Shown here: one piece after another, positions 32,534 through 33,554 of the stretch | Layout of the letters: each line of letters opens with the position of its first letter | Numbering within the stretch: the stretch's first letter is position 1 | Sequence record: OQ174503.1 | DNA length: 64,000 bases | Strand: one strand, 5' to 3' | From: Escherichia phage REP4 | Position numbers and translations under genes: made by a program | Notes under the pieces: generated by a model | What the model was told of the DNA's origin: nothing | Seen by the model: the letters and a program-made list of their open reading frames with translations, nothing else | The model's database searches: none

Positions 32534-32609
32534 TGGTCGAGGCAGTAGGGATCGAACCTACGACCTAGGACTTAGAAGGTCCTTGCTCTTCCTTCTGAGC
32601 TATGCCCCG
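32534..32609 (-). tRNA. tRNA-Arg (anticodon UCU)
   Basis: Hand-folded cloverleaf: acceptor CGGGGCA/UGCCUCG, anticodon loop CUUCUAA, T-loop UUCGAUC, CCA encoded. Confidence 0.85.
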
Positions 32610-32613
32610 TAAT

Positions 32614-32689
32614 TGGGGTGACCGATGGGAGTCGAACCCATGACTACGAGAATCACAATCTCGAGTTCTACCAACTGAACTACGGCCAC
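32614..32689 (-). tRNA. tRNA-His (anticodon GUG)
   Basis: Acceptor GUGGCCG/CGGUCAC, discriminator C73, anticodon loop UUGUGAU, CCA encoded; base at -1 is U, not G. Confidence 0.75.
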
Positions 32690-32802
32690 ATTAATACCTA
32701 CTCCAACAATCAAGATGTCTTCACACGAAATTAAGAGAAGAGTGATCAGTTCAACCCTATAATCGCGTCAAGTAGATATTAATGTGACAGTTGTCACAAA
32801 TT

Positions 32803-32877
32803 TGGCGGACGTGATAGGATTCGAACCTATAACCAATCGCTTAACAGGCGATCGCTCTGCCATTGAGCTACACATCC
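32803..32877 (-). tRNA. tRNA-Asn (anticodon GUU)
   Basis: Acceptor GGAUGUG/CACGUCC, anticodon loop CUGUUAA, T-loop UUCGAAU, CCA encoded. Confidence 0.75.
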
Positions 32878-32881
32878 AAAT

Positions 32882-32968
32882 TGGTGGGGAGTGATGGAGT
32901 CGAACCACCCGAGTCGCAATGACAATGGATTTACAGTCCACACCGCTACCTCTACGGGATAACTCCCC
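32882..32968 (-). tRNA. tRNA-Tyr (anticodon GUA), long variable arm
   Basis: Acceptor GGGGAGU/ACUCCCC, anticodon loop CUGUAAA, 87 nt with long variable arm. Confidence 0.7.
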
Positions 32969-32981
32969 TTAATTCTTAATT

Positions 32982-33056
32982 TGGTGGCCCTGGGTGGAAT
33001 TGAACCACCATCTGGCGATTATGAGTCGCTTGCTTGAACCTTCCAGCTACAGGGCC
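32982..33056 (-). tRNA. tRNA with anticodon CAU (Ile2-type by T4 synteny, or Met)
   Basis: Acceptor GGCCCUG/CAGGGCC, anticodon loop CUCAUAA, T-loop UUCAAUU; sits where T4 has tRNA-Ile. Confidence 0.7.
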
Positions 33057-33057
33057 T

Positions 33058-33133
33058 TGGTGCTGATTGACGGAATCGAACCGCCGACCTTCTCATTACA
33101 AGTGAGTTGCTCTACCTACTGAGCTAAATCAGC
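33058..33133 (-). tRNA. tRNA-Thr (anticodon UGU)
   Basis: Acceptor GCUGAUU/AAUCAGC, anticodon loop CUUGUAA. Confidence 0.85.
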
Positions 33134-33138
33134 AAAAC

Positions 33139-33228
33139 TGGCGGAGGCGATAGGATTTGAACCTATGAGTCGCCGGAGCGACTGCCGGTTTTCAAGACCG
33201 GTGCATTAAACCACTCTGCCACGCCTCC
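33139..33228 (-). tRNA. tRNA-Ser (anticodon UGA), long variable arm
   Basis: Acceptor GGAGGCG/CGCCUCC, anticodon loop CUUGAAA, 90 nt. Confidence 0.85.
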
Positions 33229-33230
33229 AG

Positions 33231-33304
33231 TCTCCATACAAGGATTTGAACCTTGGACCTCCTGATCCCAAATCAGGCGCTCTACCAAACTGAGCTACAC
33301 GGAG
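33231..33304 (-). tRNA. tRNA-Pro (anticodon UGG), CCA not encoded
   Basis: Acceptor CUCCGUG/UAUGGAG, anticodon loop UUUGGGA; only 2 nt from tRNA-Ser (dimeric precursor). Confidence 0.8.
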
Positions 33305-33314
33305 TAAATTAAAT

Positions 33315-33388
33315 TGGAGCGGATAATGAGAATCGAACTCACATCATCAGATTGGAAGTCTGAGGTAATGCCATTATACGATATCCGC
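33315..33388 (-). tRNA. tRNA-Gly (anticodon UCC)
   Basis: Acceptor GCGGAUA/UAUCCGC, anticodon loop CUUCCAA. Confidence 0.85.
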
Positions 33389-33393
33389 AAATT

Positions 33394-33480
33394 TGGTGCG
33401 AGAAGTGGGACTCGAACCCACAAGGAAATCATTCCGCAGCATTTTAAGTGCTGTGCCTTTACCAATTTGACCATTCTCGC
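33394..33480 (-). tRNA. tRNA-Leu (anticodon UAA), long variable arm
   Basis: Acceptor GCGAGAA/UUCUCGC, anticodon loop CUUAAAA, 87 nt. Confidence 0.85.
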
Positions 33481-33481
33481 G

Positions 33482-33554
33482 CTGGGAATAAAGGACTCGA
33501 ACCTTTGCATCCTGGAATCAAAATCCAGTGCCTTACCAACTTGGCTAATTCCCA
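33482..33554 (-). tRNA. tRNA-Gln (anticodon UUG), CCA not encoded
   Basis: Acceptor UGGGAAU/AUUCCCA, anticodon loop UUUUGAU; 1 nt from tRNA-Leu (dimeric precursor). Confidence 0.8.

Follow-up and report, generated by a model that had tools for sequence, protein, structure and literature searches.

T4-like coliphages carry tRNA operons that have been described in more than one form. T4 has eight tRNA genes, with segB between tRNA-Ile and tRNA-Arg. T2L, RB1 and RB3 are segB-free, and the preferred site of SegB, 27 base pairs (bp) long, was mapped within T2L's gene for tRNA-Asn; in T4 x T2L crosses the distal tRNA module of T2L is replaced via SegB homing in 99.6% of the progeny (PMC2330249). 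Eleven tRNAs were noted in Yersinia phage fPS-65 (PMC7917993), and a 2017 paper on Shigella phage SH7 lists eleven anticodons (PMC5238451). Here we analyse the tRNA cluster of Escherichia phage REP4 (sequence record OQ174503.1), which lies on the minus strand of a 64,000-nucleotide stretch, henceforth the window, and has the same list of anticodons as SH7. We conclude that the cluster is very probably the common segB-free allele of the tRNA operon of the genus Tequatrovirus.

Eleven tRNA genes in a published arrangement

We ran ARAGORN over the whole window and scored the genes with the Rfam tRNA model RF00005 (gathering threshold 29 bits). ARAGORN calls exactly 11 tRNA genes in the 64 kilobases (kb), all on the minus strand at 32534-33554. 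Every one of them scores above 29 bits in Rfam, ten at 59-74 bits and tRNA-Tyr lowest. In transcription order they are as follows (nt, nucleotides).

33481..33554, minus strand: tRNA-Gln (UUG), 89% identical to T4; CCA not fully encoded; directly abuts tRNA-Leu
33394..33480, minus strand: tRNA-Leu (UAA), 100% identical to T4
33315..33388, minus strand: tRNA-Gly (UCC), 98.6% identical to T4
33230..33304, minus strand: tRNA-Pro (UGG), 100% identical to T4; CCA unencoded, as in T4; 1-2 nt before tRNA-Ser
33139..33228, minus strand: tRNA-Ser (UGA), called by ARAGORN and Rfam
33058..33133, minus strand: tRNA-Thr (UGU), 96% identical to T4; 1 nt before the CAU tRNA; positions 36-41 are UAAUGA
32982..33056, minus strand: tRNA with anticodon CAU, called by ARAGORN and labelled "Met" in GenBank
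32882..32968, minus strand: tRNA-Tyr (GUA), with a long variable arm; Rfam 30.2 bits
32803..32877, minus strand: tRNA-Asn (GUU), 100% identical to T2 and RB3; by this identity it holds the preferred SegB site
32614..32689, minus strand: tRNA-His (GUG), Rfam 65.1 bits; C73 present, T at position -1
32534..32609, minus strand: tRNA-Arg (UCU), a non-T4 allele, 61% identical to T4, 97% to T2 and RB3 and 100% to wV7

An earlier note, written from the sequence alone, had described these eleven tRNAs with their anticodons, order and coordinates. ARAGORN and Rfam confirm all of this and agree that the Tyr, Asn and His genes fold with the anticodons it had given; the observation is real and was accurately described. 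The gaps within the Gln-Leu, Pro-Ser and Thr-CAU pairs, which the note had singled out as tight, measure 0-1 nt in ARAGORN coordinates and 1-2 nt in those of Rfam, and the spacing equals that of T4, in which Gln-Leu, Pro-Ser and Thr-Ile form dimeric precursors.

The cluster is far from rare. Over the 1.5 kb around it, identity is 99.7% with Escherichia phages GADU22 and KK4 and 98.4% with wV7, all Tequatrovirus, and matches to 80% or more of this stretch occur in 262 phage records, with the same tRNA annotations among the matches listed. At a coverage of at least 80%, we counted 215 records for the stretch of tRNA-His and the spacer preceding it and 395 for the stretch of Tyr and Asn, against 126 for the Ile-segB-Arg stretch of T4; the eleven-gene form is thus commoner in the database than that of T4. 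SH7, wV7 and fPS-65 share with the window the eleven anticodons, their order and their genome position. SH7 and wV7 are 97.8-98.4% identical to it in DNA sequence over the 1.5 kb, and fPS-65 is 99.5% identical over the stretch of tRNA-His and spacer. All three show point differences only; for example, the tRNA-Gln anticodon arm is of the T4 type in wV7 and of the RB3 type in the window. Since the cluster is annotated in many genomes and published for SH7, it was already known. The arrangement is not unusual: it is the ordinary published form of the tRNA operon of T4-like coliphages, and the cluster as such adds nothing new.

A segB-free allele of the T-even operon

The cluster is placed as in T4 and wV7, between trna.4-trna.3-trna.2/ipI and rnaD-rnaC/e.8 and on the same strand. 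It has the core Gln-Leu-Gly-Pro-Ser-Thr, with tRNAs 89-100% identical to those of T4, and by position and core it belongs to the Tequatrovirus tRNA operons. From the upstream open reading frames (ORFs) through Gln-Thr the sequence is 95% identical to T4. This homology ends about 20 nt into the CAU tRNA and restarts at rnaD; we found none between window positions 32166 and 33036. The interval between the break points measures 845 bp in T4, with the remainder of tRNA-Ile, segB and tRNA-Arg, and 871 bp in the window, with the remainder of the CAU tRNA followed by Tyr, Asn, the spacer, His, Arg and an ORF of 116 amino acids (aa). The T4-type distal module, with segB and the T4 alleles of tRNA-Ile and tRNA-Arg, is absent from the window, and each distal tRNA shared with T2 and RB3 is 97-100% identical to theirs. 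Judged by these identities, the whole distal module, from CAU to Arg, is the other allele, of the segB-free T2/RB3 type.

This changes how the cluster relates to T4. Comparison with the T4 annotation bears out the count of eight tRNAs from which the earlier note had started. Its description of the cluster as the T4 eight plus three holds for the anticodons and fails for the genes, as identity with T4 drops to 61% in the CAU and Arg tRNAs and the distal module is another allele. The three extra genes do sit at the place of T4 segB, as it had said; the further ORF it had put there does not exist, since T4 has segB alone between Ile and Arg. T4 thus resembles the window in position, flanks (95%), six orthologous tRNAs, the spacing of the three pairs, rnaD and rnaC. 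It differs in having another tRNA-Ile, another tRNA-Arg and segB, and in lacking Tyr, Asn, His, the structured element that precedes tRNA-His (hereafter the leader) and the 116-aa ORF. T2L, RB1 and RB3 (PMC2330249) match the window at 97-100% identity in the CAU, Tyr, Asn and Arg genes, and T2 also has the 116-aa ORF, but all of them lack the leader and tRNA-His, and T2 lacks Thr as well. The forms that we compared are listed below.

T4: Gln to Thr, Ile, segB, Arg; 8 tRNAs
PST: Gln to Thr, Ile (T4 type), Tyr, segB, Arg (T4 type); 9 tRNAs
T6: order of PST, with a Pro/Thr chimera replacing Pro, Ser and Thr; 6 tRNAs by ARAGORN (7 annotated)
T2: Gln to Ser, an ORF in the place of Thr, CAU, Tyr, Asn, Arg, 116-aa ORF; 9 tRNAs
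RB3: Gln to Thr, CAU, Tyr, Asn, Arg; 10 tRNAs
UFV-AREG1: as far as Tyr and Asn, then leader and Arg (of another type); 10 tRNAs
Window, wV7 and JY01: as far as Tyr and Asn, then leader, His, Arg, 116-aa ORF; 11 tRNAs

The T6 gene annotated as tRNA-Thr (locus L075, 2643-2717), for which ARAGORN makes no call, joins the 5' end of tRNA-Pro to the body of tRNA-Thr. It looks like an inter-tRNA recombination deletion that took out Pro and Ser.

The window is segB-free, and its tRNA-Asn gene is 100% identical to those of T2 (AP018813) and RB3. Given this identity, and assuming that T2L and the sequenced T2 have the same tRNA-Asn gene, the phage would carry the "recipient" allele with an intact SegB target.

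The CAU tRNA is 100% identical to the copies in T2 and RB3, 78.9% identical to E. coli ileY, 63% to metT and 61% to T4 tRNA-Ile. The core of its anticodon stem-loop, GCGA-CUCAUAA-UCGC, is identical to that of ileY, and its acceptor ends match ileY as well (5' GGCCCU..., 3' ...AGGGCCACCA); pair 27-43 is A-C in the window and G-U in ileY. The determinants of Ile2 identity, reportedly defined by Ikeuchi et al. in 2005, are C4-G69 and C5-G68 in the acceptor stem together with an Ile2-type anticodon arm. The CAU tRNA has these sequence determinants, like ileX and ileY. It is most likely of the tRNA-Ile2 type and would read AUA after lysidine modification, and the label "Met" in ARAGORN and GenBank is probably wrong. 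Its D arm is unusual (GCUGGAAGGUUCAAGC, without A14).

The tRNA-Tyr gene reaches beyond the T4-like phages. It is 100% identical to that of RB3, 98.9% to that of T2 and 97.7% to those of T6 and PST; outside this group it is 95% identical to that of Vequintavirus nimi (locus L008, 1507-1592) and 83% to that of the T5-like phage Bf23 (locus L007, 305-392), with which it shares the entire variable arm and T arm. The presence of nearly the same tRNA-Tyr in T4-like, rV5-like and T5-like coliphages points to one lineage in three families, spread horizontally.

A probable structured RNA element between tRNA-Asn and tRNA-His

The earlier note had described a 113-nt spacer with a hairpin between Asn and His. 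The length (32690-32802) and the hairpin are as it said, but this is more than a spacer, as it holds a conserved structured RNA.

32690..32783, minus strand: leader element of 94 nt, delimited by alignment and covariation; ends 1 nt before position +1 of tRNA-His
32783..32798, minus strand: hairpin UGUGAC-AACU-GUCACA, whose 3' arm can alternatively pair with the first five bases of tRNA-His

The leader is conserved in 355 phage records; among the matches listed, its annotation is "none" or a neighbouring feature only, and never an RNA feature. According to RNAalifold, a helix of 14 bp (P1) closes it, P2 is short, P3 is variable and has a central sequence of which two exchangeable versions occur, and P4 has 4 bp and a loop of 7 nt. 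Among 11 distinct copies, 98% of the cells pair, against 40-50% with slid partners; pair changes on both sides number 6, against at most 2 in the slid controls, and none of 500 shuffles reaches the covariation score. A 15-mer scan of IMG/VR returned 52 loci with 4 true homologues, to which a second pattern added 1. A metagenome scan gave 13 further matches, and the number of distinct sequences in the alignment rose from 11 to 16, none of them far from a known type. With these 16 copies, pairing is 96.5% against 40-49% and the covariation score is 0.286 against at most 0.126, in a sample that is small and comes from related phages. We regard the compensatory changes as moderate evidence for a structured RNA, not as proof. 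As to the strand, G-U pairs are frequent in the tRNA sense, and the covariance model of the leader scores 108.6 bits in the sense and 14 bits in the antisense direction.

The leader lies directly 5' of tRNA-His in three T4-like genera, following tRNA-Gln and not tRNA-Asn in Karamvirus and Jiaodavirus. It is kept in UFV-AREG1 and Gelderlandvirus STP4-a although His is deleted there. We found no second copy, and no copy near other tRNAs, in the window, T4, T2, T6, RB3, PST, Bf23 or nimi, and no Rfam match within 32690-32802 up to an E-value of 1.

Other readings of the spacer were considered and rejected. It has no similarity to rnaC or rnaD, whose true homologues lie downstream at 31904-32165. 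As a promoter it has no sense-strand site in the sigma-70 scan, and its TTGACG has no usable -10; Klebsiella phages have TCAACG there, a substitution that leaves helix P1 paired. In coding terms it offers only chance ORFs that run into the tRNA. The leader resembles rnaC and rnaD in being a non-tRNA RNA of about 100 nt inside a tRNA operon, and the same processing would release it; it differs from them in sequence, in finding no covariance-model match in T4 and in being tied to tRNA-His, not tRNA-Arg. We tentatively propose, with a confidence that stops somewhat short of even, that the spacer represents an undescribed RNA family of about 95 nt, coupled to a tRNA-His without G-1 in Tequatrovirus, Karamvirus, Jiaodavirus and Gelderlandvirus. 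Its role may be to control tRNA-His maturation or to make it possible; alternatively, it may be released as a third stable RNA of the T-even operon.

A tRNA-His without an encoded G-1

The tRNA-His gene has a GUG anticodon, C73, a canonical cloverleaf and an encoded CCA, and its anticodon loop, UUGUGAU, is identical to that of E. coli hisR. It does not encode G-1: position -1 (window 32690) is T, whereas hisR encodes the G (it starts GGTGGC). T at -1 and C at 73 are found in 13 of 13 related phage copies, and T at -1 also occurs in the unrelated T5-like phage Bf23 (locus L077, 5380-5381). Two papers describe G-1 as the major identity element for HisRS (PMC3245924, PMC4357726). Our literature search on phage tRNA-His lacking G-1 found nothing relevant, which does not prove that it was never described.

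The DNA of the hairpin at the upstream end of the leader is a perfect TGTGA-N6-TCACA palindrome, the core of a CRP site, and the only one in the 64 kb (0.04 expected). We rejected it as a CRP site, as its left half is unconserved in other genera and its distance to promoter-like elements fits no standard class. When spacer and tRNA are folded together, P1 gains five pairs between GUCAC, 5' of the element, and positions +1 to +5 of tRNA-His. The precursor is predicted to fold at -54.9 kcal/mol with the cloverleaf enforced and at -57.5 kcal/mol with the extended helix. This difference is within model error, so that the leader and the acceptor stem may compete. The hairpin, GTGAC-AACT-GTCAC-ATTA, resembles a tRNA-His with its interior deleted, which suggests that it could be a recombination scar of the arrival of a tRNA-His cassette.

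A tRNA-His that stands outside ordinary translation and, together with the leader, works as a decoy or a regulated RNA would make sense of several of these features: U at -1 in every copy from four T4-like genera and Bf23 against the G-1 of hisR, a leader that always adjoins His, an alternative pairing nearly isoenergetic with the cloverleaf, and a phage that under-uses His. We consider it most unlikely, given the canonical cloverleaf, C73, GUG anticodon, encoded CCA and Rfam score of 65 bits, and given that the leader persists without His in two phages.

In Enterobacter phage CW742 (locus L066, 629-890), a homing endonuclease gene directly follows tRNA-His, and that tRNA lacks the CCA end. 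This is a further example of endonuclease genes lodged at tRNA 3' ends.

Codon demand and defence as roles of the tRNAs

Codon usage was taken from 71 window ORFs (17,441 codons) and set against that of 40 annotated K-12 genes (15,080 codons). The phage is enriched over K-12 in AGA (10.7x), AUA (4.6x), UCA (3.7x), ACA (3.5x), GGA (3.2x), UUA (2.7x), CCA (1.7x) and CAA (1.6x). The Gln, Leu, Gly, Pro, Ser, Thr, Arg and putative Ile2-type CAU tRNAs read A-ending codons of this kind, which the AT-rich phage strongly over-uses relative to E. coli. Among amino acids, enrichment is highest for Tyr (1.91x), followed by Asn (1.74x). The comparison with the host that the earlier note had suggested for Tyr, Asn and His thus shows raised demand for the first two but a lowered one for His (0.68x). 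By these figures, demand accounts for the core set, Tyr and Asn and not for His.

The literature on phage defence offers a second role. Septu cleaves tRNA-Tyr within its variable arm; the tRNA-Tyr of T6 counters Septu by dosage, there is no escape for T4, which lacks a Tyr gene, and T2 shows resistance (Chihara et al. 2026, PMC13096335). Under retron-Eco7, phage is rescued by the tRNA-Tyr of T5 (Azam et al. 2024, PMC11555353). The PARIS nuclease AriB cuts E. coli tRNA-Lys, tRNA-Thr(UGU) and, less well, tRNA-Asn near U36-A-A-U39; T5 versions of the tRNAs rescue infection under PARIS, and tRNA-His(GUG) fragments are a possible minor AriB product (2025, PMC12409363). The window resembles these T5-like and T6 systems in its homologous tRNA-Tyr (97.7% identical to T6, 83% to Bf23), in a variable arm identical to that of Bf23 and in the U39-to-G change of tRNA-Asn, whose positions 36-39 are UAAG in the window and in Bf23 and UAAU in E. 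coli asnT. It differs in having no tRNA-Lys, and anti-defence rescue has been reported for T5 and T6 only. As no segB adjoins Tyr in the window, the SegB-driven amplification route of T6 is not available to it.

Weighing the explanations

In the explanation that we favour, the common segB-free allele would work as one unit. We infer that one transcript probably runs from a promoter 5' of tRNA-Gln to the hairpin after rnaC, and that its processing by RNase P and other host enzymes would yield the eleven tRNAs together with the leader RNA, rnaD and rnaC. Tyr and Asn duplicate the sole isoacceptors that the host has for these amino acids; they would top up the two amino acids most over-used by the phage, and could serve as spare parts when nucleases cut the host tRNA-Tyr (Septu, retron-Eco7) or tRNA-Asn (PARIS). 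The tRNA-His would have come as a cassette with its structured leader, and the eight-gene state of T4 belongs to the alternative allele, with segB in place of Asn and its neighbours. Supply and defence both fit Tyr and Asn and are not mutually exclusive; neither fits His.

Several observations weigh against this explanation. The tRNA region has been described as non-essential in T4 and T2L (PMC2330249). His is depleted in the phage proteins, a tRNA-His without the main HisRS identity element may be poorly charged, and no His-specific defence system is established. Lys is over-used (1.67x), yet the phage has no tRNA-Lys. The T6 tRNA-Tyr is itself cut by Septu (PMC13096335). The anticodon loops of the Tyr, Asn and His tRNAs are identical to those of the host, and resistance by loop changes therefore does not apply, save for position 39 of Asn, which is in the stem.

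The same evidence bears on narrower explanations. It is unlikely that the sole function of all eleven tRNAs, with no role in defence, is to match a host tRNA pool adapted to GC-richer genes to the codons and amino acids that the phage demands. The strong codon enrichment for the eight core tRNAs and the first and second ranks of Tyr and Asn speak for such a matching, but it leaves the depletion of His and the over-use of Lys without a phage tRNA unexplained, the anticodons GUA, GUU and GUG bring no added decoding capacity, and experiments give the T-even and T5 tRNA-Tyr and the T5 tRNA-Asn a specific importance in withstanding Septu, retron-Eco7 and PARIS. We are doubtful, too, that the only reason to retain the distal Tyr, Asn and His genes is to replace, or act as decoys for, host tRNAs that fall to tRNA-cleaving immune systems. 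The work on the three defence systems, the 83-95% identity of tRNA-Tyr across coliphages of the Straboviridae, Vequintavirinae and Demerecviridae, the Asn U39-to-G change as in the T5-like gene and the possible AriB fragments of tRNA-His(GUG) would all suit it. However, the highest extra amino-acid demand falls on precisely Tyr and Asn, the phage lacks the main PARIS target, tRNA-Lys, hence Asn alone would bring no rescue, Septu still cleaves the T6 tRNA-Tyr, and His again has no established defence system to answer.

The extra genes, His above all, might instead be neutral cargo shuffled by recombination and by homing-endonuclease breaks at tRNA genes. The patchwork of alleles among T4, T6, PST, T2, RB3, UFV-AREG1 and the window has this appearance, as do the footprints of His deletion in UFV-AREG1 and STP4-a, the Pro/Thr chimera of T6, the cutting of tRNA 3' ends by SegB and the non-essential standing of the region (PMC2330249). 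We nevertheless judge it very unlikely: the intact genes are 98-100% conserved across hundreds of isolates, the leader carries compensatory changes, and the tRNA-His genes of Jiaodavirus and Karamvirus (loci L064, L065 and L067), which differ in the T arm and in L067 also in the anticodon stem, are still called intact with their stems paired.

Flanks of the operon and the tRNA-Gln and tRNA-Ser genes

The features around the cluster that bear on the extent of the operon are listed below, in transcription order.

33624..33648, minus strand: candidate T4-type middle promoter 5' of tRNA-Gln, with TGCTTTA (33642-33648), 12 nt and TATTAT (33624-33629)
32165..32515, minus strand: 116-aa ORF, phrog_3355 (function unassigned); also in T2
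about 32049..32165, minus strand: homologue of rnaD (species 2 stable RNA), 93% identical to T4 rnaD
31904..32042, minus strand: homologue of rnaC (species 1 stable RNA), 97.8% identical to T4 rnaC over all 139 nt
31830..31853, minus strand: terminator-like GC-rich hairpin followed by a T run, the likely end of the operon

The candidate promoter region is 95% identical to T4 and, by comparison with the MotA-box consensus, is likely a T4-type middle promoter; the sigma-70 promoter scan gave sites no more frequently than chance. For T4, passages of PMC2330249 describe a middle promoter just 5' of the tRNA cluster and transcription that stops after species I RNA.

The 116-aa ORF matches T2 at 104 of 117 aligned positions (stop included). 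It has no Pfam match above threshold, and its AlphaFold model, with a pLDDT of 52, is too poor for a fold search. As phrog_3355 also adjoins the tRNA cluster of an Enterobacter Karamvirus (locus L010, 121-495), this family may be linked to tRNA clusters. Beyond the terminator-like hairpin, the ORFs at 30613-31176 and 31302-31775 (minus strand, 187 and 157 aa) are paralogues, both of phrog_2280 (function unassigned) and both beginning with MK(T/S)YA(E/Q)FL(T/N)EA.

The tRNA-Gln anticodon arm (33510-33530), CUGGA-UUUUGAU-UCCAG, is shared with RB3 only among the phages compared; in T4, T2, T6, PST, wV7 and UFV-AREG1 it reads UAGCA-CUUUGAC-UGCUA or differs from that by one base. The arm in the window is that of E. 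coli tRNA-His but for position 34. The CCA end of tRNA-Ser is encoded in the window (33139-33141, ..CCUCCGCCA) and unencoded in T4 (..CCUCCGUAA).

Implications

T4 is atypical of its genus in its tRNA genes, the eleven-gene segB-free operon being the commoner state. The interest of the present locus is that it gives a clean example of the segB-free allele together with an unannotated structured leader tied to a tRNA-His without G-1. The cluster also lends itself, as a natural set for comparison, to the current debate about the reasons for which phages keep tRNA genes. If the proposed coupling of leader and tRNA-His is true, the omission of G-1 from tRNA-His in two unrelated coliphage families would need a separate explanation. 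Together with this tRNA-His, which lacks an identity element that is nearly universal, the leader offers a concrete, testable way into the maturation and charging of phage tRNA-His in E. coli, and this could matter more than the cluster itself.

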